DNA of 64,000 bases from Candidatus Bathyarchaeia archaeon (GCA_035529595.1 DATKWK010000035.1:113067-177066); one strand, 5' to 3'; shown: positions 9,587-61,952, counted from the stretch's first letter. Numbers and translations are program-made. The notes: a model not told the origin generated them from the sequence alone.

Positions 9587-9589
9587 TTT

Positions 9590-18082: not shown

Positions 18083-18090
18083 CAGGTAAT

Positions 18091-18390
18091 TTAATCATTT
18101 AAAGCTACGGAAACTCCCGAGGTTAAGTAGACGATATCTGCTAGCGGCCTAAACCCGAGAGCCTGAGCTTTTTGGCTAATTACACTGAGCGAACCTTTTT
18201 GATCAATGCCCTCGCAAAGCTTTTGATTCTCTTCACGAGTTCTCAGTACTTCATTCTCCAATTCGGCGACTACTTTTCCGGCTGTCGCCAGTCGGTGAGA
18301 AACGTAAATTTGAACTAGAGCCAAAAACAAAACTAGCGAAAAAAAGATGCTCACGACATAGAAAAACTTTTTAGGTCGTTTTTTATTCAT
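18091..18390 (-). CDS. ftsL: cell division protein FtsL-like (small bitopic coiled-coil protein)
   Basis: 99 aa, single TM then a coiled-coil. Sits between rsmH and ftsI, as ftsL does in dcw clusters. Confidence 0.55.
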   Translation of the reverse strand: MNKKRPKKFFYVVSIFFSLVLFLALVQIYVSHRLATAGKVVAELENEVLRTREENQKLCEGIDQKGSLSVISQKAQALGFRPLADIVYLTSGVSVALND

Positions 18391-45327: not shown

Positions 45328-46011
45328 TTACTTCTTATTTTCATCTTTTAAATATTCAACGAACATTTGAGCTACGCCTATGGCCAAGAATATATACGCC
45401 CAAATCGCGGTTTTTTCAGCAAAAGACTCCTTTTTAAGAATCAACAGAAACGGGCAAAAAAAAAGAAAAAATAATCCTCCCGCCACAGAAATTATTCCTG
45501 TAAATTTGAAACGCTTGATCGATAAAAGCCACAGGCAAACCAAAAATAAAATCAGCCAATCAGAAGTAAAAGTGAAAGCAAGAATATCAAGCACAATCCC
45601 TAAAGAGACTGCCGCCAGAATATTATATTTACTTAGGATAAAGCTTTTCAAGGTTTGCCAAAGTCCGCCAAAGATCGCCAGAATCGTAGCAAAAGTCATT
45701 ATCACCGGTCCCGTCTTGCTAGTTAATCTTTCTGGATCACGATCAACCATTTTCCTTAGTAAATTTTCTCTTCTCTCCAAGAAATTATTTTTAATTCCAA
45801 AAAGCACTCTTCCTAAAGCCAGATGAATAAGTCGCCATCTACTTTTAATCTCCGATATGACCAAGAGAAAAAAAAGGAACCAAAAAAAACTATTTAAGAC
45901 CGATGCATCAATTCCAAAATTTAAGCCGAATAATTGGGCTGTCCAGAGCAGAAAAATGACCGTAAAGAAAGAAAAGAACAACTTACGGTAATTTAAAAAA
46001 TAAATCCTCAT
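45328..46011 (-). CDS. hypothetical polytopic membrane protein
   Basis: 227 aa, ~6 hydrophobic helices. Preferred over the overlapping plus-strand ORF 45380..45826. Confidence 0.45.
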   Translation of the reverse strand: MRIYFLNYRKLFFSFFTVIFLLWTAQLFGLNFGIDASVLNSFFWFLFFLLVISEIKSRWRLIHLALGRVLFGIKNNFLERRENLLRKMVDRDPERLTSKTGPVIMTFATILAIFGGLWQTLKSFILSKYNILAAVSLGIVLDILAFTFTSDWLILFLVCLWLLSIKRFKFTGIISVAGGLFFLFFCPFLLILKKESFAEKTAIWAYIFLAIGVAQMFVEYLKDENKK

Positions 46012-46048
46012 CTTTATTCAACTACTGGGAATAAATCCCAAAAATATC

Positions 46049-46792
46049 TTAATAAGTAGCCTTAATAGTCAGATTACCGGGATTTCTAATTTCAAACGGA
46101 ATACTGTTGCTGATTATACCATCGCTTCTTTTCAGATAAAGATTAACGCAGCCAAATTTAACCGGCACCGGCAATTCAGCGATAATTATTCCTTCACTCC
46201 AAGATCGGATGTTAGTTTCTTCATTATCGAGCATTACCTTGCCTCCTTTCCAAATCGGAAAAAAATTCAATCCCCTGATTTCAATTAAACTGCCCTGAAT
46301 TCCCCAGTTAGCGCTGATCTTATAGATCTTGGGCAAATATTCCTTGGTTAACTTTTCCTGACGATACTCACGGTAAACCAACCCGCAGATAACCACAAAA
46401 ACAAGTAACAAAAACCGAAATATTTTTACTTTCAATAATTTATTCCAACTAATTGAATTTAAAATAACCGCCAGGATCAACAAAAAAAGCAAACTAAAAA
46501 GAGAAGGAATTTTAGGAATCAGCTTCCAATTTTCAGTCAGCTGGTATTCAAACGGCAAAAAAATTAAAACATAAAAAGATAAAACCAGAATTGACGTAAC
46601 AGAGAAATTTGTTGCCAACCTTATAAAGGGAGAAAAAGCCGGTGACTGCTTGAAGCCCCAGGCCAGCTCAAGTAAAATCATTAAAAAAAGAAAAACAAAC
46701 GTTGCCCCTAACGCTGTCAGGATAACCCTTGAGAGAAAAAGAGTGATCAAAAAAACCAAGCAAGAAAAGATAATACTGGTATATCGTTCCAT
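46049..46792 (-). CDS. hypothetical membrane protein with C-terminal Ig/TIG-like domain
   Basis: 247 aa. N-terminal 5 TM, C-terminal 'IQGSLIEIRGLNFFPIWKGGKVMLDNEE…' beta-rich domain. Confidence 0.4.
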   Translation of the reverse strand: MERYTSIIFSCLVFLITLFLSRVILTALGATFVFLFLMILLELAWGFKQSPAFSPFIRLATNFSVTSILVLSFYVLIFLPFEYQLTENWKLIPKIPSLFSLLFLLILAVILNSISWNKLLKVKIFRFLLLVFVVICGLVYREYRQEKLTKEYLPKIYKISANWGIQGSLIEIRGLNFFPIWKGGKVMLDNEETNIRSWSEGIIIAELPVPVKFGCVNLYLKRSDGIISNSIPFEIRNPGNLTIKATY

Positions 46793-46804
46793 TAATTCAC
46801 CAGT

Positions 46805-48028
46805 TTACTGGAAGAATTGAAGATCGTCAACAAAGAACATCGCCTCACTAGAAGCGGCAATGCCGATTCCGCCCCTAGGAAAACTAGTGTCATTCACTTC
46901 TGATAACTTGATAAAGTCTATGCCGTTCATAGAAAAATAAAATATTAAGCGGTTTTCCTTCATCTCTACCTTTAACCAATAAGGTTGATCTTTCTCCATT
47001 TCGAAACTAGTTATTTTCCCTTTGCTTAAATTCAAATTCTGAGTTTTCCCCTCAAAGAGACCATATTTATTAATCCGCCAAGTATTAGTATCGATCCCAC
47101 CCACTATCAAATAATAACCATAGCCGCTTTTGTAGTCGCCGCGAAAGAAAAGACTAAACTCGCCGTTTTTCATGGGTGTTAACTTGGCCTGGAAAGTGCC
47201 ATTCTTAACCGAACCTTTTTTCAGAGTCGCCCGCTTACCAAACATACCAACCGCTAAAAGACCACCTTCTTTCCTAATTGATAAAAACTTATCCGAGTCA
47301 ACATTCCAATCATTAAGATAATCTTCCTCCTTTTCTGCCCATAAAGTATCAAGATTAACCGTACTTCTCGTTTTCGGGCGGGAAGTCAGCTCAATAACTA
47401 TCTCTCGAATATCCGTTCCTATCTCGCTTTCACCTTCTTCTTTATTCTCAATCGTATAAGTTGAAAATTTTTCTTTGGATAAAACCAAAAGATTCCAACC
47501 CTGACTTAAGCCACTAATAGGAAATTTATAACCCACGTTTTCACTAACAAAAACCAAGTTAAACTCTTCAATGCTGGCATAATCTGTAGCTAAGTAAACA
47601 ATGAATTTAAAATTTAGAACATCTTCGATATTAAATCTCTTTTTCAAACTAGTAATCGCTTTTTTTCCGTCATTACTGGTAATAAACAAGGAACTTACGC
47701 CTTCGTAAAATGTAGCATAGTCAAATTCTTTGTCACCAGACCAATCTTCGTTTTCCTCGAAGCTGGCGATGTCAAAACTAGAAGCGGCTGCATCCCGATA
47801 AGAAAGTTTATACTCTTTGTCGCCAATAGGAATCTGGACTTCAATGGTCTTACTAATAGCCGTTTCTTCTTTCCGAGATAAAAAGGAAACTTCACCCCGC
47901 TCATAAAAGTAAAAGGCAATAACAAAGGCCACAAAAATCAAGGCTAAGGCAATTATCTTTTCAGAAAAAGTCTTTTTCGTCTTTCTCCTTTTCTCCTCAG
48001 ATAGAAAATCTAATTTTTCAAACGCCAT
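46805..48028 (-). CDS. hypothetical membrane-anchored extracytoplasmic protein
   Basis: 407 aa. Basic N-terminus then a single TM 'IIALALIFVAFVIAFYFY', large exported domain. No recognisable family. Confidence 0.45.
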   Translation of the reverse strand: MAFEKLDFLSEEKRRKTKKTFSEKIIALALIFVAFVIAFYFYERGEVSFLSRKEETAISKTIEVQIPIGDKEYKLSYRDAAASSFDIASFEENEDWSGDKEFDYATFYEGVSSLFITSNDGKKAITSLKKRFNIEDVLNFKFIVYLATDYASIEEFNLVFVSENVGYKFPISGLSQGWNLLVLSKEKFSTYTIENKEEGESEIGTDIREIVIELTSRPKTRSTVNLDTLWAEKEEDYLNDWNVDSDKFLSIRKEGGLLAVGMFGKRATLKKGSVKNGTFQAKLTPMKNGEFSLFFRGDYKSGYGYYLIVGGIDTNTWRINKYGLFEGKTQNLNLSKGKITSFEMEKDQPYWLKVEMKENRLIFYFSMNGIDFIKLSEVNDTSFPRGGIGIAASSEAMFFVDDLQFFQ

Positions 48029-48171: not shown

Positions 48172-51100
48172 TTAGTTTATTTTACGGCGAAGCCACTTAT
48201 CCTTTATAAAAGGATATCCCAAACACCCAAAACATGCAACCAAAGTCATACCGCTGATGAATAAGCCAATATAAAAAAGTCTTTGCGGACGGAATTCAAC
48301 GATTATTTCATAGTTTTCTCTCCCATCGACATCTGCCGGAGTAATATACCAAGAATTAGCATAGCCATTAACTAATAGATGTCTCTCTTCAGAAATTGGT
48401 TTACTACGAAGAGTTTCAAAAGTATTTCTATCAAAAAAGATGTTTTTATGGGTTCCTTCTTTAATCTCCCCATCAAAGTAACTAGCCACGACTTGCCCAT
48501 AATCGTTTTGAGTTTTGAGTTTTGAGTTTTGAGTTTTATCTATATATACTTTCCAGCCCTCGTGGAAACTTTCGGAAAATATTAAAGTATAAGGATTAAC
48601 GGCTCCTTCAACTTTAACTCGGTATTTCGTCGGATTAATTTTGGCAAAAGTAATTTTGGGTATTGCCTTTCTAGTATCTAATGCCTGATTTCCAATATCT
48701 TTAAGTCTTAAAATAACTTCCGGCTGAAAAATGCGCTCAATTGCCAAATCTTTCTCCTGAGCAGTTGATATCGACAAATGAGCAAAAGCTATTTCTGCTT
48801 CCGAGGAAGATTTGAAGAACATTTCAAAATGCCTAAACTCTTCATTAGTGGGAGATAAATATGTTTTGGCTACTTCTCCAGCTTCTCCTTCAGCAACAAA
48901 AAAGCTGCCGCCCAGAGGCGCTTTATAATCAAAACTAATCCGATAAATAGAGTTTGGCAAATAACCTTTTATCCTCAAATTTTCATCAACTAAATTCTCA
49001 CTAACTCCTTTTATGGTCAAAAACAACTCTTGTGCCCCTTTTTTAAAATATTCCTCTCCCAAGTTCATCCATCCAGCCGTATTTACGTTTTTTACGCCCC
49101 TCTCTATGCTCTCGCTCCTTAAAAATACTCCATAATTCCCCTCCTTCGGTACATTCAAATTATAAACCAACTGCGAAAAGTCTCGCTTAACCTCAAGCCC
49201 ATTAGCTCTTTCCTCCAACTCCTTAAAAACATCTTCCCAATCTCTTAATCTCCCAATTTCTTCTATTTTTACTCCATGCTCCCGCAAACTCCCCTCAAAG
49301 TTCGCCAAAAACCTCGGAAAATTCTTGTTTTTTGATTCTTTCAGGCTTATTAAAATCTCAAGAGCGTCTATCATTTCTCTCCGATAGCGCTCCGCCAGCC
49401 GTATTATCCGCTCTTCATCAATACTATCGGCAAACCTTTTCATCTCTACTATCCTCTTCGAGGCATAAAACAAATCCTTTTCAAACAACTTTTCGGGCTC
49501 TTTTCTAACCTTCCAGCTATCATATTCTTCCTCTTTTAAAATTAGGGGGTAAATCAATTGGTTTGGACTCCATCGGACATCAGGCAACTCTATCTCCCTG
49601 GGCACTATTGTCAATTCCTCTCCGCCAATCATATTCTCCAGCTTTCCTCTCACAAACACCTCATCCGCCCAATTCAATGCTGCCAGTTTCTTATCAGAGT
49701 TACCAGGAGTATCTGAAAGGTATATAGCTGATCTCATTTCGTAGTTATCAAGCCCCACTATATCCACCAAACTCTCTATGTTACCCCTCGCATAAATTAT
49801 ATTTTGGGGAATATAAAAACGGGGGAGAAAATATTCATCTTTAATTTTATAAATAAATAATTTGTCTCCAAAGTTCTTAAAATAATCTTCTTGGAAGTAT
49901 TTTTTTATTCCAGATTCCCATTTAATTAACGCCTCAACTCTAGTCTTGTCAATATCGTTCTGGTCTAATAAATAGTCAATCGTTCCCAGTTTAATAAAAT
50001 TAAAATTTTTTTTATCTACAAAGGCTTGCAGTATTTTGCTATAGGGAGCAATCTTATTATAATAATCTCCTATATAATTAGAATTACCAAATAAATGGTA
50101 TATTTTTGCATTTGAATTTCCCAAATTTTCATCATACCATTTATAATTCAAATCATAGCCTTCTGTCATAAAAGGGAAAGGCAATATGAAAGAGTCCTTG
50201 GTGCTCTTTGACCACGATGAATATTCATACCAATAATACGGCAATTTTATAAGATTTTTCTTCCAGCCTTCGTTTGTACGATCAAAAAAGTTATAAGAAA
50301 ACAATGGGATGCCGCCAATTGAAACAAGAAAAAAAACACAAACGATAAAAAAATTTTTATGATTTCTGTTTCTAAATTTTTCGTAAATATTATCCAAAGA
50401 GATTGAAAATAAAGTAACCATTAAGAATAAAACTAGGGGCATAAATTTCGCAAATGGCTCTCTGAAAATATAAAAGAAAGGAACATTCCTATAAAACCAT
50501 AAATATATTTCCGGAATAAAACTAGATCCGCTGGCAAACAAAATAAAGATTAATAAAAATAAAAATAAAACAATATTAGCAATTTTTCTACTTTTTTTGA
50601 AAAATAAGAAAGAAATTGAGAGGCTCGATATTATAAATGAGTGCAAAATTACAAAAGAATTATCATAAAAATATAGCCAAATATTATAAAAAACACCTTC
50701 GTAATCTAAATATTCCCACCATCCTCCTCTTAGTTGAAAAATTAAAAAAAGCGGCGAACCTATCGCTTTAAAAGTAGCTGCCTGCCTGATTTCATCAAAA
50801 TTATTCATCAGTAATCTATAAATGAGTCCTTGATAAAAAAAAATGGGCATCAATAAAATGAAGAAAATGCATAACCTATAAATATATTCCCTAAAAAAAT
50901 TAAACAAACTAATTTTTTCAGAAAATATAAATACCACTACCGCTATAACGTACACAAAAAGCGTCGTCGCTAACTGGGGCGGATTGCAAAAAATTGCCTG
51001 AAATAAAAAAAAGTAAACGAAATTGTATATTGCGTACCTATAACTTCTTGTCTTTAAAAACTTATATAAAAGAACAAAGAATAAGGGCATTAAAATGAGC

Positions 51101-51525
51101 TGGTACATTTTGGCACTATAAAAAATAGTCGAAGTAAAATAAAAATTGAATATATAGAGTAAGGAGCCTGTAAAAATTATGACATTATTACTGGTAAAGA
51201 ATCTTAATAGGCAGCTCATTCCAAGAAGAGAACAAAGTAGAAAAACCTGTAGAAATACTATTTGTATAGAGTGATTACTCAAGCCGACCTCTGATAGTAA
51301 TTTATAAAAAATAGCATTAGGAATAATCATCGTATGGTCGCCAAGAGATGATGCTTGCCCATAGTTTGCTTTTTCACTCCACGAAAACAAGTTTTTATCA
51401 ATTATATTTTGATAATTGGCAAAGCTAGACTCTTCTGATACAAACAGATACTCTCCTTTTAACCAGATAAACGGGATAATTATCGATAATATTATAAAAG
51501 ATATGATTAAATATTTTTTTTGCAT
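48172..51525 (-). CDS. giant polytopic membrane protein (N-terminal ~600 aa, >12 TM) with ~500-aa extracytoplasmic C-terminal domain; possible GT-C/YfhO-like enzyme
   Basis: 1117-aa ORF. Very AT-rich. Contains a (gttttga)x4.9 repeat at 48505-48538. Family assignment is only by architecture. Confidence 0.5.
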   Translation of the reverse strand: MQKKYLIISFIILSIIIPFIWLKGEYLFVSEESSFANYQNIIDKNLFSWSEKANYGQASSLGDHTMIIPNAIFYKLLSEVGLSNHSIQIVFLQVFLLCSLLGMSCLLRFFTSNNVIIFTGSLLYIFNFYFTSTIFYSAKMYQLILMPLFFVLLYKFLKTRSYRYAIYNFVYFFLFQAIFCNPPQLATTLFVYVIAVVVFIFSEKISLFNFFREYIYRLCIFFILLMPIFFYQGLIYRLLMNNFDEIRQAATFKAIGSPLFLIFQLRGGWWEYLDYEGVFYNIWLYFYDNSFVILHSFIISSLSISFLFFKKSRKIANIVLFLFLLIFILFASGSSFIPEIYLWFYRNVPFFYIFREPFAKFMPLVLFLMVTLFSISLDNIYEKFRNRNHKNFFIVCVFFLVSIGGIPLFSYNFFDRTNEGWKKNLIKLPYYWYEYSSWSKSTKDSFILPFPFMTEGYDLNYKWYDENLGNSNAKIYHLFGNSNYIGDYYNKIAPYSKILQAFVDKKNFNFIKLGTIDYLLDQNDIDKTRVEALIKWESGIKKYFQEDYFKNFGDKLFIYKIKDEYFLPRFYIPQNIIYARGNIESLVDIVGLDNYEMRSAIYLSDTPGNSDKKLAALNWADEVFVRGKLENMIGGEELTIVPREIELPDVRWSPNQLIYPLILKEEEYDSWKVRKEPEKLFEKDLFYASKRIVEMKRFADSIDEERIIRLAERYRREMIDALEILISLKESKNKNFPRFLANFEGSLREHGVKIEEIGRLRDWEDVFKELEERANGLEVKRDFSQLVYNLNVPKEGNYGVFLRSESIERGVKNVNTAGWMNLGEEYFKKGAQELFLTIKGVSENLVDENLRIKGYLPNSIYRISFDYKAPLGGSFFVAEGEAGEVAKTYLSPTNEEFRHFEMFFKSSSEAEIAFAHLSISTAQEKDLAIERIFQPEVILRLKDIGNQALDTRKAIPKITFAKINPTKYRVKVEGAVNPYTLIFSESFHEGWKVYIDKTQNSKLKTQNDYGQVVASYFDGEIKEGTHKNIFFDRNTFETLRSKPISEERHLLVNGYANSWYITPADVDGRENYEIIVEFRPQRLFYIGLFISGMTLVACFGCLGYPFIKDKWLRRKIN
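48505..48538. repeat. heptanucleotide tandem repeat (gttttga)x4 plus partial copy inside the 1117-aa gene
   Basis: Four perfect 7-mers at 48505-48532 plus 'gtttta'. Encodes KTQNSKLKTQN on the minus strand. Confidence 0.9.
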
Positions 51526-52178
51526 ATAAAAATATTTATGGGGGCAATACTAGAAAAAAAATAAAATAGTTTCCCAAATCTATAGTCGAATCCTATTTTT
51601 TTAATTACTTTGAATCCGTGATAGTTAACCATTCCTATCATCGCTTTATAAGTTATACCTCTTATATGGTGTATGCTTCCGCCTGGTTTATTATTAATTT
51701 TCCCAAATATACCGGTGCCAAAATTTCCATATTCGTTGGAAACCTCTAGGATATGCGGTTGATATCCTAATAGTAATTCAACTCGGGCATAGATAGAGGA
51801 TAAATTAGGGAAAGAAAAAATTAAATTACCATCATCCTTTAGATTATTAAAGCAATTTTTAAATAGAACGTCTGTTTTATCTATATGCTCAATCAATTCA
51901 AAAAAGGCTACTACATCAAACTTTTTATCAAGACGAAATTCATTTTCTACTGATTGAAGAATAAATCTATCGACAAAATCAGGCTTAAAGACTTGGGGAA
52001 TAATATCAACACTGGTTATATTAACATTCTTTTCTTTTTTTAAAGCCTTTTCAAAATTAAAATTAATTCCGCAACCAAGGTTTAAAACTGAAGCATTTTT
52101 CTTAATGAAAGAAAAAGTCATCGCATAAAAAGAACTATCAATATTAACATTCCCTCCTTGCAAGTTTATTTTATCCAT
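51507..52178 (-). CDS. class I SAM-dependent methyltransferase
   Basis: 223 aa. Motif I 'VLNLGCGIN', acidic 'VDII', motif 'VVAFFELIEHI'. Confidence 0.6.
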   Translation of the reverse strand: MDKINLQGGNVNIDSSFYAMTFSFIKKNASVLNLGCGINFNFEKALKKEKNVNITSVDIIPQVFKPDFVDRFILQSVENEFRLDKKFDVVAFFELIEHIDKTDVLFKNCFNNLKDDGNLIFSFPNLSSIYARVELLLGYQPHILEVSNEYGNFGTGIFGKINNKPGGSIHHIRGITYKAMIGMVNYHGFKVIKKIGFDYRFGKLFYFFSSIAPINIFICKKNI

Positions 52179-52187
52179 TTTTTCTAG

Positions 52188-53501
52188 TCATTTATATTTT
52201 TCTAAAAATTCTCTGAAAGATTTAATAATATAATTCAATCTTCCTTCATTTAAGCCAGGGTAAACTCCAATCCAGAAAAGATTATTCATTACTAAATCTG
52301 TATTTTCCAAAGAACCATAAATTCGATGTTTTGTCTCCAAATAAGCAGGCTGCTTAGTTAAATTCCCACCAAATAGCATCCGGGTGGCAATTTTATTCTT
52401 TTCCAAAAAACTAACAATTTCCCCCCGATCAAAAGGAGCATCCTTTTTAACCAAAAGAGGAAATCCAAACCAACTTGGATCAGAATAACCGTCCCGAATA
52501 GGCAAAACAAAAAAATTTTCCCAATCCCGTAAATTACTAATAAGATACTCAAAGTTTCTTTTTCTCGCTTTAATAAATCGAGGTAGTTTTTCGAGCTGGG
52601 CGACCCCAATTGCCGCCTGCATATCAGTTATTTTTAAATTATAACCGATATGAGAATAAATATATTTATGATCGTAGCCATATGGAAGTTCGCCTAACTG
52701 CCAAGAAAATCGCCTGCTACATGAATTATCTTGCCCTGGTTCACACCAACAATCTCTACCCCAATCACGAAAAGAAGCCACAATTTTTTTTAAAAGCAAA
52801 TCATCAGTTAAAATCGCTCCTCCTTCACCCATCGTAATATGGTGAGCTGGGTAAAAACTAGTGGTGGAAAGATGACCAAAACTGCCAGTATATTTCCCTT
52901 TATACATCGAACCTAAAGCGTCACAATTATCTTCAATAAACCAAAGATTGTATTTTCTTACCAATTTTAGAATCTTATCAAGATTAACAGGATTACCAAG
53001 AGTATGAGCAATAAAAATGGCTTTAGTTTTTTTAGAAATTGCTTTTTCGATTTTATCCGCATTAATGTTATAAGTTCCAAGGGCCACATCTACAAATACC
53101 GGAATCAAATTATTCTGAATTATTGGGTTTAAGGTCGTTGGAAATCCGCAAGCAGTCGTAATCACCTCATCACCAGGCTTTAGCCTTTTCTTTCCCAATT
53201 TGTTGGAAGTCAAAGCCGAAACAGCTAAAAGATTGGCTGACGAACCAGAATTAGTCAAAAGACAGTATTTTAACCCTAATAAGCCAGCCAATTTTTTTTC
53301 AAATTCTTGGGCATAGGGTCCGGCTGTCAACCAAAAATCTAAAGAAGCATTAACTAAGTTTACTAACTCTTTTTCATCATAGACTCTACCCGCATATCTA
53401 ACTGGCGTCTTACCAGGAATAAAAAGTTCTTCACCACTGAGCTGATGAAACTTTTTAACCAGAGTCAAAATCTGTTTCCTGATTGCTTTTTTGTCATCCA
53501 T
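52188..53501 (-). CDS. rfbH: CDP-6-deoxy-L-threo-D-glycero-4-hexulose-3-dehydrase E1 (PMP/[2Fe-2S] enzyme, DdhC/RfbH/AscC type)
   Basis: 437 aa, the same length as Yersinia E1. 'SFYPAHHITMGEGGAI' has His-His where DegT enzymes have the PLP lysine. The Cys pattern C-X57-C-X1-C-X7-C ('NCDALG…GRDCWCEPGQDNSC') exactly matches the E1 iron-sulfur motif. Confidence 0.85.
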   Translation of the reverse strand: MDDKKAIRKQILTLVKKFHQLSGEELFIPGKTPVRYAGRVYDEKELVNLVNASLDFWLTAGPYAQEFEKKLAGLLGLKYCLLTNSGSSANLLAVSALTSNKLGKKRLKPGDEVITTACGFPTTLNPIIQNNLIPVFVDVALGTYNINADKIEKAISKKTKAIFIAHTLGNPVNLDKILKLVRKYNLWFIEDNCDALGSMYKGKYTGSFGHLSTTSFYPAHHITMGEGGAILTDDLLLKKIVASFRDWGRDCWCEPGQDNSCSRRFSWQLGELPYGYDHKYIYSHIGYNLKITDMQAAIGVAQLEKLPRFIKARKRNFEYLISNLRDWENFFVLPIRDGYSDPSWFGFPLLVKKDAPFDRGEIVSFLEKNKIATRMLFGGNLTKQPAYLETKHRIYGSLENTDLVMNNLFWIGVYPGLNEGRLNYIIKSFREFLEKYK

Positions 53502-53734
53502 ACTAAAACATTTCTGAAGCGAAAACTCCTGATTGATCTAAATCCTAACAAGACCAAAGCCCTTTTTCAATCATCTAATTCCTGAATGTCCGTAGTAAAG
53601 AAGGTCTGAGCAAGGCCACTAATTCTTTTCTTCTCTATTCTATCTATAACATCCAAAAGCCCGGTTGAATCAGCTTGCAATACATATTCCAAACCAGCTC
53701 TTTCCGAAAAATCATTTGCAGGACTTCTGATTTT

Positions 53735-55420
53735 TTACCTCAATCGGTACTTTCCTGCAGTCCATTTGGGTAGCATCGGCTGGTCGGGATCAATCATTAA
53801 CTCGCAAACTACCGCTCCCCGGTAATCTATTACTTTTTTAACTTTATAAAGATCTTTATTAGCAGCAATCTTCTCGTATTTTATTCCCCAAGCTTTTATC
53901 AGTTTCTCAAAATTGGGAAAACTTACACCCGTTTCCGGGGTTGAGGCAAAAATTCTTTTGAAAAAAGCAGCGTGAGTTACTTTTATTGAGTAATAACCAT
54001 TATTATTGAAGATAAAAATTTTCAAGGGAAGATTGTGATGAACCATAGTTTGTAACTCATGAATATTAAGCATTATCGATCCATCGCCTTCCATACAGAT
54101 GACTGGCCTTTTATGATCGGCAATACAAGCTCCAATTGCCAAAGGAAGGCCAGATCCCATCTGTCCTAAACCAGCATTGGTGATAAACCGCTGTCCCCGC
54201 TTTATCTTAAGAGCCTGATGAGCAGCTAAACTCGCCATCCCGTTAGCGGTTGCCAGATGATAATTTTTTGTCTGTTTACCTAATTCTGCTAAAAATTTAT
54301 AAACATTAAGATATTTTTTATCTCCCTGAAAACTTTTAGGATTGATCGGCTGAATTTTTACTTCCCAACGATTAAGTTTGATATTTTGTTTGGACAATTC
54401 TTGTAAAAATAGTTTCGCATCACAACAAATTGGAACATTAATACTCACTGTTTTCTTATGCATTTCTGCCGCATCAATATCAACCATAATTTTAAAAGCG
54501 TCCTTGGCGAAATTTTTATAATCGTAAGAAGTTTGGGTAAGTTGTAATCTTTCACCAATCACCAAAAGGAGATCACAATTGTCAATCGCATAATTGGCTG
54601 ACTCATTACCAGGCATGCCTTGCCGACCCAAATAATAGGAATAATCATCCGTAACCAAATCATCGGCCGTAAAAAGAGCAGTCACCACGTTTATTTTTAA
54701 TTTTTCGATCAGTTGCCAAAGTATTTTTTCTCCACCACTCAATCTAATCCCGTTTCCTACCAAAAGGAGTGGTTTCTTTGCTTTCTGTAATTTTTCTACA
54801 ATCAAATCAATCTGAATTTTAGGTAATTTAAATTGAAAATTTGATGAAGGAACGAAAGGCCTTAATTTTTTAGGATCTACTTGACCAGTTTGAGCATCAA
54901 CAGGGCCCTGAACATCAAGAGGGATTTCAACCCAGACCGGGCCTGGACGGCCTGACTTGGCCAGATAAACTGCTTTTTCCAGGTGGTAACGAATGTCAGC
55001 CTCTTTTTCAACGGTTACCGCATATTTGGTAATTGGTTTAACGATATCAATGACGTTTAGTTCTTGAAAACCAAGTGCTCTAAAAACAGGCACGCCGTTT
55101 TTGCGTGGGACAATATTATCTCTCTTTACTTGGCCGCTGATGACTAAAATCGGAATGCTGTCCAACCAAGCGCCCGCAACGCCAGTTACCGCATTAGTTC
55201 CTCCGGGTCCTGTTGTCACCAAACAAACGCCAATGTCATTTTTTATCCGGGCATAACCCTCAGCGGCAATCGCCGCTGCTTGTTCATGATGACAGCAATA
55301 AGCGTTAAGCTTAGATCTCCCAACCGAATCGACCAAGTGCATAATCCCACCACCAGACAAAAGGAAAATTGAATCAGTATTTTTCTCTAAAAATTTGACA
55401 ACGTAGTCGCTAAGTTTCAT
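53735..55420 (-). CDS. thiamine-diphosphate-dependent acetolactate-synthase-like enzyme (YerE-like candidate sugar C-branching enzyme)
   Basis: Track ORF extends to 55537. The likely start is Met 'MKLSDYVVKFLEKN' at 55420, abutting the HAD gene. ThDP/FAD three-domain pattern ('GGGIMHLVDS', 'VTTGPGGTNAVTGVAGAWLDSIPILVISGQV', C-terminal 'GLGQMGSGLPLAIGA…GDGSIMLNIHEL'). Confidence 0.8.
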   Translation of the reverse strand: MKLSDYVVKFLEKNTDSIFLLSGGGIMHLVDSVGRSKLNAYCCHHEQAAAIAAEGYARIKNDIGVCLVTTGPGGTNAVTGVAGAWLDSIPILVISGQVKRDNIVPRKNGVPVFRALGFQELNVIDIVKPITKYAVTVEKEADIRYHLEKAVYLAKSGRPGPVWVEIPLDVQGPVDAQTGQVDPKKLRPFVPSSNFQFKLPKIQIDLIVEKLQKAKKPLLLVGNGIRLSGGEKILWQLIEKLKINVVTALFTADDLVTDDYSYYLGRQGMPGNESANYAIDNCDLLLVIGERLQLTQTSYDYKNFAKDAFKIMVDIDAAEMHKKTVSINVPICCDAKLFLQELSKQNIKLNRWEVKIQPINPKSFQGDKKYLNVYKFLAELGKQTKNYHLATANGMASLAAHQALKIKRGQRFITNAGLGQMGSGLPLAIGACIADHKRPVICMEGDGSIMLNIHELQTMVHHNLPLKIFIFNNNGYYSIKVTHAAFFKRIFASTPETGVSFPNFEKLIKAWGIKYEKIAANKDLYKVKKVIDYRGAVVCELMIDPDQPMLPKWTAGKYRLR

Positions 55421-56115
55421 TTTGTCTCCCAAGCCTCTAACTCCAATATTTCCGCTAATGAATGAATGACGGGGAATTCTTGCTGTTTCCCCTGCCAAGC
55501 AGTATTGCGGGCGGTTTGGACACCGATAAATCGACACCCGACTGCTTGGGCTGCCTGCCAGTCGTTCTCACTATCTCCAACATAAAGAATTTTTGAGGGA
55601 TCGATTGATTCTCTCTCAATGATAGTTTTTAGATTCTCGACTTTGTTTCCGGGACGTCCATAAACATCCTTAAATCCCCCCAACTCTAACGCTGCAAGAC
55701 TTTCTAAAGATTGTTCCTTAGGCGTGGCTGTATTAATATAGACCGGCATCTTTCCAGAGAGAATTTTTATCGCTTGGCGATTTTCTGGCGAAACACCGAT
55801 TTGTAAAATACCAACCTGGACAATGGCATTAAAAGCCTCACAACGATATTCTATTTCAGTAGGGATTTTTTCTTCTGGGATGCCAAAATGTTTACAAACA
55901 AGACGCACGATATCGCGACGATCTCCTTTACCACCCTTAATTTGCTCCTGCGCTTCGGCTATCACCTTTTCAAGTTCTTCCGGATCATATTCCGTGAAGA
56001 CTTTACACCAAGCCTGATCTTTAACCTCTTCAGATCCTCTTCTGGTTGTCGGGTCTAAAACGATACAATTATCAAAATCTAGTACTATTACTTTTATTTT
56101 ATTAACCTGTCTCAT
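55417..56115 (-). CDS. HAD-superfamily phosphatase
   Basis: 232 aa. Motif I 'VIVLDFDNCIV' (DxD), C-terminal 'YVGDSENDWQAA'. Confidence 0.65.
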   Translation of the reverse strand: MRQVNKIKVIVLDFDNCIVLDPTTRRGSEEVKDQAWCKVFTEYDPEELEKVIAEAQEQIKGGKGDRRDIVRLVCKHFGIPEEKIPTEIEYRCEAFNAIVQVGILQIGVSPENRQAIKILSGKMPVYINTATPKEQSLESLAALELGGFKDVYGRPGNKVENLKTIIERESIDPSKILYVGDSENDWQAAQAVGCRFIGVQTARNTAWQGKQQEFPVIHSLAEILELEAWETK

Positions 56116-56222: not shown

Positions 56223-57167
56223 TTAAGCAGTTAAAATGTATTTTGATTCTTCCTTAATTGTTTCCATCGATGTAAAAACCGGTTTATAACCAATCTCTCT
56301 TGCCTTATTATATTTGGAATAGTAAATATCTTTTGAACCAGTCGCGCTAACATGTTTTAAAGCCCGGCTTACTTGATATTTCAAACCGTATTCTGATGAG
56401 AAGTAATCAAGGATTTCCTTTTTTTCAACTGGCCTAGCGCTGTTTATGTCAAAAGCGGCATTGATTTTTTTAAACTTCATACATCCTTTTATTGCCGAGT
56501 ACATATCTTTCGGATGTAGGTAATCGCGAACAAAGTCCTTATCAGTGGTAACAAACACTTTTTTCTTTAAAACACAATCCAGTAATTCAGTAATAAAATA
56601 ACTATCCGTCAAATCAATAAATCTACTAAAATAAGAAAAAACCCTAAGATCAACAATCCTCAAATAATCAAATGCCCTATGCTTCACCTCGGAGTTGAGT
56701 CTGCTAATAGAGTAATAATCTTCTTTAGCAACATGGTTCACCCGGATACTACTCATCGTGTTTTCCTCCGCCGGCATTGTAAATCCGCTACCATAAATAG
56801 CTCCACTACTGAAACTGATATAAAGAGCCTCAGGACAGCTGCTACGCAGACACTCAATAACCAGATTGTCATATTTTTCGGTTACCATAAAGTAATTAGT
56901 ATAATTACCCTGTAACTTATCTATAGGCCCCACGCCAACGCAGTTAATGATGATATCATAAGAAGATTTAATAAAATTCTCATAACCTTCATGAATAACA
57001 CAATTCTTATCAGGGGATTTCTTTATCGTGCCAAGAAAACGGCAGGCCTTGTCCGGCGATCTCGTATAGAGATGTAGGCTGAATTCTTCTCTCTCTAGAA
57101 AATTGTTAATCAATCCTTTGGCAATATGAGAAGTGGCGCCAAAAACAGCAATTTTTGCTTTTTTCAT
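56223..57167 (-). CDS. NAD(P)-dependent short-chain/extended SDR (sugar epimerase/reductase family)
   Basis: 314 aa. N-terminal Rossmann 'KIAVFGATSHIAKGLINNF'. Confidence 0.6.
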   Translation of the reverse strand: MKKAKIAVFGATSHIAKGLINNFLEREEFSLHLYTRSPDKACRFLGTIKKSPDKNCVIHEGYENFIKSSYDIIINCVGVGPIDKLQGNYTNYFMVTEKYDNLVIECLRSSCPEALYISFSSGAIYGSGFTMPAEENTMSSIRVNHVAKEDYYSISRLNSEVKHRAFDYLRIVDLRVFSYFSRFIDLTDSYFITELLDCVLKKKVFVTTDKDFVRDYLHPKDMYSAIKGCMKFKKINAAFDINSARPVEKKEILDYFSSEYGLKYQVSRALKHVSATGSKDIYYSKYNKAREIGYKPVFTSMETIKEESKYILTA

Positions 57168-58183
57168 GTCTCATAAAACTTTTTAAGCCGCTCGGCATCA
57201 TCATTTAAAACATCCTCCGGGAATAATCGATACTTAATTAAATCACAGTTTGGACATATCTTGGGCATCTGGGAAACGCCGTCAAGCATCCGGCGCCTAA
57301 AACTTTGAAATTTTTTTCCATTCCATATCTTAACCACTGATTCTTCATGACAATCACCTAAAATCTCAGGATATTCAAAAGAATAACAGGGAACAATTTT
57401 GCCATCCGGATTAATCTGAAAGTGAAAAAAAGGCTGGGGACAAATTTTGACTTCTGAAACCGGCAATCCAAACTGGGTAAAAGACATCTTTTTACCCTTG
57501 ATTATTTTCTCATAGTCCACGTTTGAGTGAATCGGCACCATATGTTCGATGGCAATCGTATCGCAAAGATCGCCAAAAATTTTATAAAACTTCTTTTCAT
57601 CGTCCTTGCCCTGCAAAGCGCAATCGATGATTTTAATATACATTTGGGTATCGCCTTTATTTTCAAAAAAGTAGCGCAGGTTCTTGACAAATTCTTCAAA
57701 ATCGATGTCTGTTTGACAGACCTCTTTATATTTTTCTTTGGTCGTTCCCTGCAAGGAGACAACCAATCTTGTCAGTCCGGCGGAAATAAGTGAGTCTGAC
57801 ATTTTAGGCGTCAAAAGCGAAGCGTTGGTTAACATTTCGACTGTCCTGGCGATCTTTTTGGAAGCGGTATAGGCAACCATCTCTGCGATATTGGGGTGCA
57901 AGAGTGGTTCGCCGATTCCCACAAAACGAACCACTTTTATCTTGTTTGGAAACTTGGCCATATCATCAACGCATTTTTTATACAAACCAAGATCCATGAC
58001 CACTTTATCGGAAATAAAACCCCGCTTATTCTTGTCTAAATGAAAAATGCAATAATTACACTTAAAATTACAGGCATAAATGGGAAATATCTGAACCACA
58101 AATGGCGTCGCCAGGGGAAGAACAGCCGCCAGTCTTGTTCTTTTTCCCCCGGGTGCTTGTCCGCTAATATCTGTGGCTTTCAT
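57164..58183 (-). CDS. radical SAM enzyme with C-terminal SPASM/twitch-like Cys-rich domain
   Basis: 339 aa. 'IFPIYACNFKCNYC' (CxxxCxxC), 'VGIGEPLL', C-terminal Cys cluster 'ICPQPFF…VPCYS…CPNC'. Confidence 0.75.
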   Translation of the reverse strand: MKATDISGQAPGGKRTRLAAVLPLATPFVVQIFPIYACNFKCNYCIFHLDKNKRGFISDKVVMDLGLYKKCVDDMAKFPNKIKVVRFVGIGEPLLHPNIAEMVAYTASKKIARTVEMLTNASLLTPKMSDSLISAGLTRLVVSLQGTTKEKYKEVCQTDIDFEEFVKNLRYFFENKGDTQMYIKIIDCALQGKDDEKKFYKIFGDLCDTIAIEHMVPIHSNVDYEKIIKGKKMSFTQFGLPVSEVKICPQPFFHFQINPDGKIVPCYSFEYPEILGDCHEESVVKIWNGKKFQSFRRRMLDGVSQMPKICPNCDLIKYRLFPEDVLNDDAERLKKFYET

Positions 58184-58674
58184 ATAAGGTCTTTATAAAC
58201 ATGATGACACCCCAGTAAATTACGAGGGCATGATCCATGCCATTTGAGATAACCAGGATCGGTTTCCTTCAGGCCCCTGTTAATGGGAATAAATGTCCTT
58301 GTCAGAAAGCACTTGAATAAAATCGAAACAAAATGACTTCTGACATCCCGCTTGTGATTAATAAATTGATTAACGGCGATTGGGATAGGGTCAAAACTTA
58401 CCTCAACCCCTACTTCTGCTTGGGCGACTTTTTTGAGCCTTGTCTCCAGAGTTTCTTTATACCTCACAATCCCCCCCGGAAGATGCCAGCCTTGCCCTGA
58501 CAACTGGTCGTCTCTCCACGATAAAAGAGTCTGCCCATCCTCATCTTTTATCAAAAGATCAACATTCACCAATGGGGTAAGGCCACTGATAAAAAAAAAT
58601 ACTTCTTCAGGCAAACTTTTTTTTCGATTGGGAATTTTTTTGTTAAGAAAAGCAATCGCTTCGGTAATATTCAT
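58180..58674 (-). CDS. NUDIX-like hydrolase (degenerate Nudix box)
   Basis: 164 aa. 'GWHLPGGIVRYKETLETRLKKVAQAEVGVEV' approximates GX5EX7REUXEEXGU with substitutions. Confidence 0.4.
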   Translation of the reverse strand: MNITEAIAFLNKKIPNRKKSLPEEVFFFISGLTPLVNVDLLIKDEDGQTLLSWRDDQLSGQGWHLPGGIVRYKETLETRLKKVAQAEVGVEVSFDPIPIAVNQFINHKRDVRSHFVSILFKCFLTRTFIPINRGLKETDPGYLKWHGSCPRNLLGCHHVYKDLI

Positions 58675-59771
58675 GATTGGAACAGTCTTTTGTCTTTGTT
58701 AAATGGTTTTTTTGTTTTATCTTTAGCTGTAAAAACCTTAGACCAGTGAACCGGAAGGGGTTTACCATAAGTCTTTTTAGCGATATAATTTTTAATAAAA
58801 TCTCTATCTTCGGCAATCTGACAAGTTTCAACCCGCTCGCCGAAGTATTTAATACTAAACCCTCTTTCAATAATATCTTTTAGCGGTTCTTCAAAGACAT
58901 TACCAATCGAGACATATATGTATGGACAAGGCAGAACATCCCCATATTGGGTAACGGAAAACATGCCTTTAACGGCAATACAACCCATATTAAGACCATA
59001 GGCCGGGGTTAAATGAGTAAAAACCTTGTATTTTTTTTCAAGCTCTTCCATGTATTTCATATCTTTTTTATCAATCAGGTTGTCAAAATTCCCTTCCCAA
59101 GCCCCAACCGGCTTGGCATAGCTCACAAAAATCCCAATGTCTCTCTTATCAAAATATTTAATAAAGTTAACAAACTCATCTGAGTAAAGCCTTTGTTTCC
59201 AAACTACGGTTTGGATAAAAATGCCTAAACCAGCCTTTAGGGCGGCATCAATTGACTTTACTGCCCTCGCATGAGCACCAGGCATTCTCCTAAACGCATC
59301 ATGCTCCTCGGCGTTAAGACTATCGATGCTCAACTGGACCCTATCCACCCCAATGCTTTTTAAATGCCTGGCTTTTTTCTCGTCCAAAAACCAGCCGTTA
59401 GTATCAGAGTTGATGTAAAACTTTTGTGGATTAATAGCAGCAACCAATTCGTCAAAATCTTTAAATACGAGCGGTTCACCCCCGGTGATCGTTACCCGCG
59501 CCAAGCCTAGTTCGTCTGCTTGTTGAAAAAGATTTTTAACATCAGAAATGGTCAATGACCGCTTATTTTGCTTACCCTGCATTGTTTTAATCGAACAATG
59601 CTGACAACGAAAGTTACAGGTGTAGTTATATTGAAGTTGAATAATGGCAATGCTTTCTCCTCTTTTGAGTTTTTCATCAAACTTCATAATCTTCTCATAG
59701 ACCAAAGGTTTTTCTTCTTTGAGTTTGTTTCTTCTGCTCTTTTCCTCGGGTTTTATCTTTTTCTTGGCCAT
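58671..59771 (-). CDS. radical SAM enzyme (SPASM/twitch-type auxiliary Cys)
   Basis: 366 aa. 'QLQYNYTCNFRCQHC' (CxxxCxxC), 'VTITGGEPL', later Cys 'MGCIAV…LPCPY…ETCQ'. Confidence 0.7.
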   Translation of the reverse strand: MAKKKIKPEEKSRRNKLKEEKPLVYEKIMKFDEKLKRGESIAIIQLQYNYTCNFRCQHCSIKTMQGKQNKRSLTISDVKNLFQQADELGLARVTITGGEPLVFKDFDELVAAINPQKFYINSDTNGWFLDEKKARHLKSIGVDRVQLSIDSLNAEEHDAFRRMPGAHARAVKSIDAALKAGLGIFIQTVVWKQRLYSDEFVNFIKYFDKRDIGIFVSYAKPVGAWEGNFDNLIDKKDMKYMEELEKKYKVFTHLTPAYGLNMGCIAVKGMFSVTQYGDVLPCPYIYVSIGNVFEEPLKDIIERGFSIKYFGERVETCQIAEDRDFIKNYIAKKTYGKPLPVHWSKVFTAKDKTKKPFNKDKRLFQS

Positions 59772-59785: not shown

Positions 59786-60958
59786 TTATCTCATAGTAAT
59801 AATTTCATTATTGAGCCCCATCTTTTCTATCTCTTTTAAGATTTCATCGCTGTATAAAGCAGCACAAATAACAATGACGCCATTAAATGATTTTAGCCTG
59901 TCTGGTGAACAAAAAATAGGGACCCCTTTTATTTTCATTCCTTGTTTTTTATCGTCTTTATCAATAAAAAAGGCAATCTTGCATTTGCCAAGAGAAGTAT
60001 TATTGATAAGCCGCATCGTATAGGACCCTGCTCCCCAAATAGCAATCTCCTGTTGTGACTTAGCAATCCTGTCTATTTTGGGCCATTTATCCTGACGACG
60101 TGATTTCTTAATATAGGAAACAATTGAATCTCTAACTTTGAAACTGGGAGCGATCCTTTCGGGTGGCTTTTTTGGGGTTCTTTTTTGGTAAAGAGTATAA
60201 ACGGCTGGATAGAGTTTATTAGACACATGACTTTCTTTTTTTGCAAATTCCACCAAATCAAGATTTTTTTGAAGAAATAAATTGTTGAGAGAATTTTCGT
60301 CAAAATGGTTAATATGCTCGCAATCAAAATAATGAAAAGGGACGAGGTAATATTTTGTATAGCGTGATGCGTCCGGCACTTCAATATACAATATCCCGTT
60401 TTCATTTAGTTTACCGACGATATTATCAGCGGCTACTTGCAAGTCACAGATATGTTCCAGAACATGAGAAAGAATAATGCAGTCAAATTTCTGTCGGGGA
60501 ATCGCGGAGCGAATGGTAAAAAGCTCTCCCTCAAAAGCATTTATGCCCTCTTGAACATTCTCGACACACTTTCGAGACGGATCTAATCCATTTAAGTTCT
60601 TATACCCTAATTTTTTGAATTCGGTTAATAATTCGCCGTTCGCGCAGCCAATATCCAGTATTGAAGCGTTTTTGTTCTCTAAACGATTTGATATCGGCGT
60701 TAATTTGCTTAAGTTCCATTTCGTGGTCGTTTTTGTCGCACCACTAAATTCATATTTTGAAAATTCTTGATAAAACTTATTGTAATCTCGCTGGCGGGCG
60801 GGCGTATCGGCGTAAACAAAGCCGCATTTTTGGCAACAAACAACATCATATTCTTCTGGCAAAGGATAGTTTTCGGGTATCGCAAAAAATTGATGATGAA
60901 GTATTTGGCCAGACTTATTAAAGCATATCGGGCATTTCCTAACCAATTTTTTAATCAC
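59786..60958 (-). CDS. NDP-sugar C-methyltransferase (TylC3/EryBIII-type: N-terminal Zn-ribbon + class I SAM MTase + C-methyltransferase C-terminal domain)
   Basis: 390 aa. 'CPICFNKSG…PLPEEYDVVCCQKCGFVY' Zn-binding domain, motif I 'ILDIGCANGEL', C-terminal Rossmann-like 'IAIWGAGSYTMRLI'. Confidence 0.65.
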   Translation of the reverse strand: MIKKLVRKCPICFNKSGQILHHQFFAIPENYPLPEEYDVVCCQKCGFVYADTPARQRDYNKFYQEFSKYEFSGATKTTTKWNLSKLTPISNRLENKNASILDIGCANGELLTEFKKLGYKNLNGLDPSRKCVENVQEGINAFEGELFTIRSAIPRQKFDCIILSHVLEHICDLQVAADNIVGKLNENGILYIEVPDASRYTKYYLVPFHYFDCEHINHFDENSLNNLFLQKNLDLVEFAKKESHVSNKLYPAVYTLYQKRTPKKPPERIAPSFKVRDSIVSYIKKSRRQDKWPKIDRIAKSQQEIAIWGAGSYTMRLINNTSLGKCKIAFFIDKDDKKQGMKIKGVPIFCSPDRLKSFNGVIVICAALYSDEILKEIEKMGLNNEIITMR

Positions 60959-61952
60959 GTGGAAAAGTTTTTATATTTTTTAACCGCTCTATAATCTTTT
61001 CTGCATACTGATCAATATTATCAAGTTCGCAATAGTCGTTCATTGTACATTGTTTGCAGGGTTCAATTTTATCTTTGCTTCCCATCAAATGGGCAATCTG
61101 CAACCCTCTTAACTTTTTACCATTCCAAATTTCTAAAAGTGAGCTTTTGTTGGCGTCACCGATGATGTTTATCCTTCTCCAATCGACGCAACAAGGAACA
61201 ACTTGGCCGTCTGCTTGAATTTGAAAACCCTTAAACATTTGAGCGCAAACTTGTCGCTTGACCACCTTCCCTCCGTACCTGAACTCACTACTGGAGTAAG
61301 GACCATCAAATTCAGGCCACATAGAAACTAATTTTTCAATGTATATTTCGTCACAGCTGTCACCAAATAAATCTAAAAATTTTCTTTTTTTACTTTTTGA
61401 GGGAACCGCTTGATGATGAATCTTAACATGAATAATGCAATCACCGCTGCCAGCGTGCAAAGCGCGAATATTTTTCAATAATTTTTCAAAATCTATCTTG
61501 ACATTGGAGATACGCTTATACTCCTGGGCCGATAATCCTTCAATAGAAAAAATTATTCTATCAGCAAAACGCGGCAGATTTTTAATCAAATCAGGATTAA
61601 GCAGAGTTCCGTTACTGATCAACTCTATCCTTTCAATAAGTTTTTTTTCCTTTGCATACTGCAGTATTCCCACAATGTTCTTGCTCATTAAGGGTTCGCC
61701 ATTGCCACAAACGCGCAGTACCTTAATTTTATCGGGAAATTCAGACAAATCATCGATTAGCTTTTTAAGAAGCTCAAGAGACATAAAATCTCTTTTGAAA
61801 GCCTTGTCGCCACTTGTTTGGGGACAAAACGCACATTTCAAATTGCAATAGCCTGATGGCTCAATGTAAACAACAAACGGAGTAGTCAGAGGAATATGCT
61901 TTCCCAATACTAGCCGTTCGTGACGTGTTTGAGATACTAATTTCGCCTTCAT
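60951..61952 (-). CDS. radical SAM enzyme with SPASM domain (paralog of 57164..58183)
   Basis: 333 aa. 'YIEPSGYCNLKCAFC', 'CGNGEPLM', C-terminal 'VCAQMF…VPCCVDW…CKQCTMNDYC'. Collinear similarity to the 339-aa radical SAM protein. Confidence 0.75.
   Translation of the reverse strand: MKAKLVSQTRHERLVLGKHIPLTTPFVVYIEPSGYCNLKCAFCPQTSGDKAFKRDFMSLELLKKLIDDLSEFPDKIKVLRVCGNGEPLMSKNIVGILQYAKEKKLIERIELISNGTLLNPDLIKNLPRFADRIIFSIEGLSAQEYKRISNVKIDFEKLLKNIRALHAGSGDCIIHVKIHHQAVPSKSKKRKFLDLFGDSCDEIYIEKLVSMWPEFDGPYSSSEFRYGGKVVKRQVCAQMFKGFQIQADGQVVPCCVDWRRINIIGDANKSSLLEIWNGKKLRGLQIAHLMGSKDKIEPCKQCTMNDYCELDNIDQYAEKIIERLKNIKTFPRD

Follow-up and report, generated by a model that had tools for sequence, protein, structure and literature searches.

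We analysed a 64,000-nucleotide stretch (hereafter, the window) of a genome deposited under the name Candidatus Bathyarchaeia archaeon (GCA_035529595.1, DATKWK010000035.1:113067-177066), focusing on two neighbouring minus-strand genes, one encoding an E1-type sugar 3-dehydrase (52188-53501) and the other a thiamine diphosphate (ThDP)-dependent enzyme (53735-55420). Together, these genes probably constitute the core of a pathway for an acyl-branched deoxysugar linked to cytidine diphosphate (CDP), of the YerE type known from yersiniose, erwiniose and caryophyllose. The pathway is embedded in a surface-glycan locus, and a NeuB-like synthase encoded nearby is the candidate source of the branch donor. 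An earlier note, made from the sequence alone, had proposed that an acetolactate synthase (ALS)-like ThDP gene near E1 suggests a branching reaction analogous to that of YerE. This proposal is now supported by the clade in which the ThDP enzyme falls, by the accompanying RfbF, RfbG-like and YerF-like genes, and by the native locus of the YerE-like enzyme JanthE.

Sequence comparison confirmed the open reading frame (ORF) at 52188-53501 as a full-length E1/RfbH-type CDP-4-keto-6-deoxyglucose 3-dehydrase of 437 amino acids (aa), an enzyme type that uses pyridoxamine 5'-phosphate (PMP) and a [2Fe-2S] cluster. In our Pfam and/or NCBIfam scans, which covered all window ORFs of at least 150 aa and most of those of 120-149 aa, it scored 720 bits on the RfbH equivalog model NF011936 (cut-off 423), and its residues 5-433 aligned end to end with the Yersinia pseudotuberculosis E1 structure 3BCX (E=1.8e-167, 57% identity). 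The [2Fe-2S] motif, C193-X57-C251-X-C253-X7-C261, and the H220-H221 pair match Yersinia E1 in their very residue numbers, with H220 (in AHHITMGEGG) standing where aminotransferases have the Schiff-base lysine, and the match to ColD, an Fe-S-free relative, was far weaker (208 bits). The earlier call (an exact C-X57-C-X1-C-X7-C motif, two histidines in place of the pyridoxal phosphate lysine, 437 aa) was correct in every detail, and the key active-site residues, whose loss had been named as the sign of a wrong call, are all kept over the full-length alignment. The alignment with Yersinia E1 also favours the ATG start of the 437-aa protein, while public gene calls begin 11 codons late (426 aa; window 53468-53501), presumably at a TTG. 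Patescibacteria relatives of this E1 likewise keep the cysteine set of the [2Fe-2S] cluster, the first cysteine being C192 or C193.

The ThDP gene lies upstream of E1 as its immediate neighbour, the two being separated by a 233-bp spacer without any ORF of at least 80 aa, and not two genes away as had been stated. It encodes a YerE-like carboligase of 561 aa, whose ATG at 55420 (MKLSDYV), the start given in the earlier note, is shared by 119 of 119 aligned homologues and overlaps the stop of the upstream haloacid dehalogenase (HAD) gene (ATGA). A 600-aa mechanical ORF beginning at a GTG (53735-55537) was rejected as an over-extension, since the homologues all begin at MKLSDYV. The protein has three domains (Pfam TPP_enzyme N, M and C) and keeps the cofactor motifs, i.e., the catalytic Glu (E46) and GDGS...NNNG. 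Against solved structures it scored 361 bits with 8RPH, 261 bits with 5AHK (which we take to be PpYerE), 230 bits with plant acetohydroxyacid synthase (AHAS) and 207 bits with the yeast enzyme. 8RPH is JanthE, a YerE-like enzyme that accepts ketones (PMC12188165), and PpYerE also has a solved structure (PMC12247030). We built a neighbour-joining tree with 100 bootstraps and PoxB of E. coli as the root, in which the window enzyme, its Patescibacteria family and the JanthE group formed a clade in 100 of 100 bootstraps, joined by PpYerE at 99. IlvB, IlvI and plant AHAS formed a separate group (93), which joined with Gcl (82). By sequence, the ThDP enzyme thus groups with characterised YerE-like enzymes, and not with AHAS or Gcl.

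By name, the top NCBIfam match of the ThDP enzyme is nevertheless an ALS model (TIGR00118, acolac_lg), and the Joint Genome Institute (JGI) annotates its relatives as acetolactate synthase, as would be expected if it were an ordinary large subunit of branched-chain amino acid synthesis that had come to lie in a glycan locus by chance. Yet the enzyme falls under the cut-offs of all ALS models, the best being that same TIGR00118 at 368 bits versus 538. When aligned on Arabidopsis AHAS, whose E144 mapped correctly, it was found to keep the catalytic Glu, Q207 and GDG...NN, whereas at K256, D376, R377, W574 and P197 it has L, L, T, T and K instead (L168, T295 and T482 of the window enzyme stand at the K256, R377 and W574 positions), substitutions that vary little or not at all among 119 family members. 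We take K256, R377 and W574, in this numbering, to belong to the second-substrate (acceptor) site of AHAS. Moreover, the tree separates the enzyme from IlvB, IlvI and plant AHAS (99%), and within ~75 kb, i.e., the window and 11.5 kb past its end (upstream of the cluster, reached via a contig bearing an identical gene), we found neither an IlvN/ACT small subunit nor any further ilv gene, the neighbours of the ThDP gene being the HAD gene and E1. The earlier note had named grouping with true acetolactate synthases beside an IlvN partner as evidence for this alternative, and neither was found. Thus, while the enzyme resembles AHAS large subunits (IlvB/IlvG/IlvI) in its three-domain ThDP fold, catalytic Glu, GDG-NN motif and ~33% identity, it differs from them in its acceptor-site residues, sub-cut-off scores, separate clade and lack of a regulatory subunit, and we regard an acetolactate synthase identity as effectively refuted, with only a sliver of probability left to it.

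Genes for the remaining steps of a yersiniose-type pathway, the logic that the note had invoked, were found at or past the window end and within it. Just past the end lies a full-length glucose-1-phosphate cytidylyltransferase gene, whose product is 43.5% identical to Salmonella RfbF and scored just under the TIGR02623 cut-off (295.7 bits versus 300.25). A short-chain dehydrogenase/reductase (SDR) resembling CDP-glucose 4,6-dehydratase straddles the end (63562-64000 within the window, the gene extending to 64536, minus strand). Its best NCBIfam match is TIGR02622 (221 bits, cut-off 278), it carries SDK and YxxxK motifs, and it is 28.5% identical to Salmonella RfbG over 330 aa. A GalE-like SDR further upstream was dropped as a 4,6-dehydratase candidate, as it is the straddling SDR that has these motifs and the best CDP-dehydratase score. 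Another SDR (56223-57167, minus strand; Pfam Epimerase) is 40% identical over its full length to the SDR encoded directly downstream of JanthE, and probably reduces the branch carbonyl in the manner of YerF/ErwF.

The native locus of JanthE, in Janthinobacterium sp. HH01, encodes RfbF, RfbG, E1, JanthE, the SDR, an acetaldehyde dehydrogenase and a DmpG/BphI-type aldolase, and the window orthologues of the first five are 44, 29, 55, 36 and 40% identical, respectively. The published YerE-type layout similarly comprises a CDP-4-keto-3,6-dideoxyglucose acceptor, a ThDP enzyme, a YerF/ErwF reductase and a donor-making aldolase (PMC9306805, PMC12247030), and more than 200 clusters with E1 and a YerE-like enzyme have been reported as predicted (PMC12247030). 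That both the JanthE locus and this layout match the window cluster, evidence that was invisible from the sequence alone, supports the original interpretation. Like the clusters for yersiniose (YerE/YerF), erwiniose (ErwE/F/I/J) and caryophyllose (MMAR_2331-2333) and that of JanthE, the window cluster has the five-gene core of cytidylyltransferase, CDP-glucose 4,6-dehydratase, E1-type 3-dehydrase, ThDP carboligase and adjacent SDR reductase. Unlike them, it belongs to an uncultured Patescibacteria-like bacterium (see below) and has no pyruvate aldolase and no acetaldehyde dehydrogenase. Instead, it encodes a NeuB-cupin fusion, which sits where YerE-type clusters have the donor-making aldolase, a HAD phosphatase, a Nudix protein, three radical S-adenosylmethionine (SAM)/SPASM enzymes and methyltransferases. 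The ThDP motif also differs, being CDG in JanthE and the canonical GDG in the window enzyme.

In the pathway that we propose, the order of steps is taken from established knowledge of YerE pathways, and the enzyme families and their gene association from the present analysis. The cytidylyltransferase would form CDP-glucose, which the straddling SDR would convert to CDP-4-keto-6-deoxyglucose. E1 would then strip the 3-hydroxyl by PMP/[2Fe-2S] chemistry, with electrons supplied by a ferredoxin or flavodoxin system of general use and not by a dedicated reductase (E3). The ThDP enzyme would decarboxylate an alpha-keto acid and add the resulting acyl-anion equivalent to the C-4 keto group, creating a tertiary alcohol branch, whose carbonyl would finally be reduced by the YerF-like SDR.

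As for the donor, the gene at 62017-63549 (minus strand) encodes a NeuB-like, phosphoenolpyruvate (PEP)-dependent synthase fused to a C-terminal cupin (Pfam NeuB and Cupin_2). It scored 366 bits with its closest solved relative, the uncharacterised SpsE-like protein 3G8R, versus 98 bits with NeuB, and only 139 bits on the NeuB family model (cut-off 400) and 129 on that of PseI (cut-off 340), which places it, by sequence, in what appears to be an uncharacterised subfamily. Where N. meningitidis NeuB has its SDH and ERH histidines, which we take to be metal ligands, the aligned residues are retained in the window synthase. NeuB-type enzymes make 3-deoxy-2-ulosonic acids, i.e., 4-hydroxy-2-oxo acids. 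Since this is the donor class of ErwE and MMAR_2332 (PMC9306805), we infer that the NeuB-cupin product may serve the ThDP enzyme: a 3-deoxy-2-ulosonic acid would be made from PEP, dephosphorylated by the HAD phosphatase (55417-56115, minus strand; Pfam Hydrolase/HAD_2) and used to form a long, polyhydroxylated branch, in place of the pyruvate-aldolase product on which ErwE, MMAR_2332 and MyGE draw. Going by gene association, we hold this assignment of the donor to be nearly an even call, if anything slightly short of one. The donors of YerE-like enzymes are aldolase-made alpha-keto acids of C3-C8 (PMC9306805, PMC12247030). ErwE rejects pyruvate. Of the earlier proposal, the analogous branching reaction stands, while its two-carbon branch probably does not, as the conserved neighbouring genes point to a NeuB-made alpha-keto acid, and the branch is probably longer than the two-carbon acetyl unit of yersiniose.

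A PEP-dependent synthase with two aligned NeuB histidines, a HAD phosphatase and a Nudix protein resembling nucleotide-sugar hydrolases together recall the logic of NeuB, PseI or LegI working with a KdsC-type phosphatase. In contrast to nonulosonic and octulosonic acid pathways, however, the window synthase is fused to a cupin and falls under the NeuB and PseI cut-offs, and no cytidine monophosphate (CMP)-transferase domain was found in the window ORFs scanned, nor in the recorded Pfam annotation of the relatives' called genes. Given this last result, the NeuB product would not be activatable as a glycosyl donor.

The association of these genes recurs in related loci. Among close relatives, the ThDP enzyme is 65-79% and E1 53-70% identical, and five of the six loci (L036, L037, L038, L047 and L048, but not L049) have an E1-type gene no more than 10 kb from the ThDP gene, in four cases adjacent or one gene away. 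A HAD gene, of varying subtype, stands beside the ThDP gene in L036, L037, L038 and L048, and in one protein (P0116) the ThDP enzyme is itself fused to a C-terminal HAD domain. The window, L037, L038, L047, L048, L049 (as two pairs) and L013 have a NeuB-like gene within a few genes of the ThDP gene, the order in L013 being NeuB, dehydroquinate synthase (DHQS)-like gene, FGGY kinase, ThDP gene; the NeuB-cupin orthologues of L037, L038 and L048 are 58-63% identical. In two outgroup loci, L012 and that of JanthE (L039), NeuB is replaced by an aldolase and an acetaldehyde dehydrogenase. L047, L048 and L049 also have RfbF and RfbG-like genes alongside the ThDP gene. We also observed that the two separate pairs of NeuB-like and ThDP-enzyme genes in L049 lie at 8729-18716, the second together with a DHQS-like gene and a HAD gene, and that the glycan locus of L047 which holds its YerE-like enzyme includes a split transketolase, encoded as N-terminal and C-terminal genes (15843-17572).

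The absence of an E3 reductase from the window, stated in the earlier note, was borne out by domain, motif and tblastn searches over the ~75 kb. No Fer2, FAD_binding_6 or NAD_binding_1 domain was present in the window ORFs scanned; regular-expression scans for plant-type [2Fe-2S], 4Fe-4S ferredoxin and ferredoxin-NADP reductase (FNR) motifs returned only two spurious RxYS matches, inside radical-SAM gene coordinates; and Salmonella RfbI (E3), used as a tblastn query, had no match below E=1.1 in the window or below E=7.9 in the 11.5 kb past its end. Nor did RfbI find anything significant in six Patescibacteria relatives, in L012, L013 and L028, or in the JanthE locus; a weak match to E. coli hcr was seen in reference locus L045. 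As a positive control, RfbI was recovered from the unannotated rfbC-rfbF gap on a Salmonella plasmid record, where both the regular expressions and tblastn detected it. Hence, while the window E1 resembles those of the Yersinia and Salmonella E1/E3 systems (AscC/AscD and RfbH/RfbI), being 56-57% identical, with identical cofactor motifs and RfbF and RfbG homologues beside it, the Salmonella E3 gene lies directly upstream of rfbF and three genes from rfbH (L046 5112-6086), and no counterpart was found in the ~75 kb here or in the related loci examined.

Because E3 is missing from the window, six relatives and the JanthE locus alike, the lack of a clustered E3 appears usual for such clusters rather than a special anomaly. 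There is also a precedent in SpnQ, an Fe-S-containing E1 homologue that runs on general ferredoxin or flavodoxin reductase pairs (PMC8987622). Like the window E1, SpnQ, of the spinosyn forosamine pathway, has no dedicated E3, but it acts on a deoxythymidine diphosphate (dTDP)-linked 2,6-dideoxy sugar within an actinomycete secondary-metabolite cluster, whereas the window pathway is CDP-linked and belongs to a surface glycan. A low-potential electron donor must presumably exist in the cell, since the four radical-SAM enzymes of the locus need one. That E3 is repeatedly missing next to E1 genes of the Fe-S type, both here and in Janthinobacterium, favours the notion that a dedicated E3 is dispensable. 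Of note, the 3-dehydrase of L012 (18011-19324), an aldolase-type YerE-like cluster, keeps H220, but C251, C253 and C261 have given way to S, A and P. From these residues it looks like a ColD-type, Fe-S-free enzyme with no need of E3, i.e., a second route to dispensing with it.

Several observations weigh against a YerE-type pathway with a NeuB-derived donor. E1 is left without an assigned reductant, the search for E3 having covered the window and 11.5 kb past its end. The tree contained JanthE and PpYerE as its only YerE-like references, without YpYerE, ErwE, MMAR_2332 or MyGE, and the ThDP enzyme is 34% identical to PpYerE, scarcely more than to plant AHAS (33%). The three radical SAM/SPASM enzymes, the Nudix protein and the cupin have no explained role in the scheme. 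Finally, pyruvate is the donor of YpYerE and is also taken by JanthE (PMC12247030), which leaves room for a simple C2 branch, and L036 keeps the HAD, ThDP and E1 genes with no NeuB gene within 10 kb. As glycan loci often mix several sugar pathways, the ThDP enzyme could use pyruvate to make a two-carbon, yersiniose-like branch, with the NeuB-cupin, HAD, Nudix and radical-SAM genes belonging to a separate sugar pathway of the locus. We consider this unlikely, though by no means negligible: NeuB-like genes recur beside the ThDP gene in seven loci, while aldolase genes take that place in two outgroup loci, a ThDP-HAD fusion exists, and no CMP-transferase was found that would activate the product of an independent NeuB pathway.

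It could also be that the ThDP enzyme is uncoupled from E1 and only decarboxylates the NeuB keto acid or ligates it to another acceptor, while an SDR reduces the E1 product to an ordinary 3,6-dideoxyhexose. Two further SDRs are indeed encoded in the cluster, and L049 and L013 carry NeuB and ThDP genes with no E1 within 10 kb. However, the E1 and ThDP genes are immediate or near neighbours in the window, L036, L037, L038, L048 and the JanthE locus, RfbF and RfbG-like genes stay with the ThDP gene even in L049, and the characterised relatives of the ThDP enzyme take ketones (PMC12247030). Taken together, these results make such uncoupling improbable, decidedly more so than a pyruvate donor, and we favour the reading in which E1 and the ThDP enzyme act in one branched-sugar pathway.

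The accessory genes between the core pair and NeuB-cupin, all on the minus strand, include three for radical SAM/SPASM enzymes (Pfam Radical_SAM and SPASM), namely rSAM3 (57164-58183), which overlaps both of its neighbours by 4 nt and has 62-71% identical orthologues in L036-L038, rSAM2 (58671-59771), the best conserved accessory gene (66-76% identical in L036-L038 and L048), and rSAM1 (60951-61952). Between rSAM3 and rSAM2 lies the Nudix gene (58180-58674), whose product resembles guanosine diphosphate (GDP)-mannose mannosyl hydrolase (Gmm; NCBIfam NF011963, PDB 1RYA/2GT4) and is kept at 46-61% identity in L036-L038 and L048. By analogy with PseG or LegG, it would perhaps free an aldose from a nucleotide sugar. 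A SAM methyltransferase gene (59786-60958; Pfam Methyltransf_23 and Methyltransf_14) encodes a C-terminal domain of the sugar C-methyltransferase type, and a small SAM methyltransferase (51507-52178; Pfam Methyltransf_23) is encoded directly downstream of E1. In order of transcription, the cluster reads GT2, B12-radical SAM, GT2, cytidylyltransferase, GalE-like SDR, 4,6-dehydratase-like SDR, NeuB-cupin, rSAM/SPASM, methyltransferase, rSAM/SPASM, Nudix, rSAM/SPASM, SDR, HAD, ThDP enzyme, E1 and methyltransferase. Promoter and terminator scans across it gave nothing exceeding shuffled expectation.

From ~4.1 kb to the window end all predicted genes lie on the minus strand, and from ~24.7 kb onward they form a large surface-glycan locus with glycosyltransferases, PMT-like membrane proteins, flippases and a ManC-like enzyme. 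Over 20.3 kb compared, the window matched part of JGI contig Ga0307378_10000010 without a mismatch and is identical to it. The low-coordinate part (within 2696-19283) encodes Mur ligases, FtsI, MraW and FemAB, for which reason we regard the host as a bacterium, and the nearest relatives of several window proteins are from Levybacteria, Magasanikbacteria and 'Patescibacteria group' metagenome-assembled genomes (MAGs). Judging by these proteins, the host would be an uncultured Patescibacteria-like bacterium. The NCBI label Candidatus Bathyarchaeia archaeon, carried by identical proteins, conflicts with both lines of evidence and looks like the result of a mis-binned or mis-classified MAG. Contig scans with the upstream SDR returned relatives at 53-59% identity, with little synteny.

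Other genes of the region were noted as well. Overlapping the methyltransferase downstream of E1 is the gene for a 1117-aa multi-pass membrane protein (48172-51525), followed by genes for three proteins of 407, 247 and 227 aa (45328-48028). No Pfam match was recorded for any of these four in the gene tables, and they may represent the transferase or polymerase for the branched sugar. Past the window end, GT2 glycosyltransferase genes flank a gene (L034 6686-8185) for a B12-binding radical-SAM protein of 499 aa, whose top families are HpnJ and BchE, and L037 and L038 have B12-binding radical-SAM genes too. Also inside the glycan locus, on the cluster's strand ~5.2-6.6 kb past the window end (L034 3440-4781), are genes for adenine phosphoribosyltransferase and methylthioadenosine phosphorylase, which adjoin four radical-SAM genes and may provide local salvage of 5'-deoxyadenosine or methylthioadenosine. 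At the other end of the window lies an unusual peptidoglycan region (1320-10408), where several additional paralogues of Mur ligases are encoded alongside a FemAB-like gene and a second DegT aminotransferase (6599-7867). A 459-aa protein of this region (1320-2699) has no Pfam match, and its GGKDS motif recalls PP-loop ATPases.

The pairing of E1 with a YerE-like enzyme is already known; what appears new is the form that it takes in Patescibacteria, where a NeuB-type donor module and radical-SAM tailoring accompany it. A full-text literature search for YerE together with NeuB returned only noise, the 2024 JanthE survey of Krug et al. lying outside its coverage. More tentatively, and at somewhat less than even chances, many Patescibacteria may make an undescribed class of higher-carbon branched sugars, in which a NeuB-type, PEP-derived 3-deoxy-2-ulosonic acid that is not CMP-activated would be decarboxylated by a YerE-like ThDP enzyme, joined to C-4 of CDP-4-keto-3,6-dideoxyglucose and tailored by radical SAM/SPASM enzymes, with E1 reduced by a non-dedicated donor in a host of minimal redox metabolism. 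YerE-like enzymes are in demand as biocatalysts for making chiral tertiary alcohols, a use limited chiefly by their donor range. If our proposal is true, a large, conserved Patescibacteria family associated with a NeuB-type synthase would point to untried donors, i.e., polyhydroxylated ulosonic acids, and to new branched sugars. It would also mean that ultra-small, metabolically reduced bacteria devote ~12 genes, including three to four for radical-SAM enzymes, to one exotic surface sugar, an investment that bears on how such bacteria interact with their hosts.

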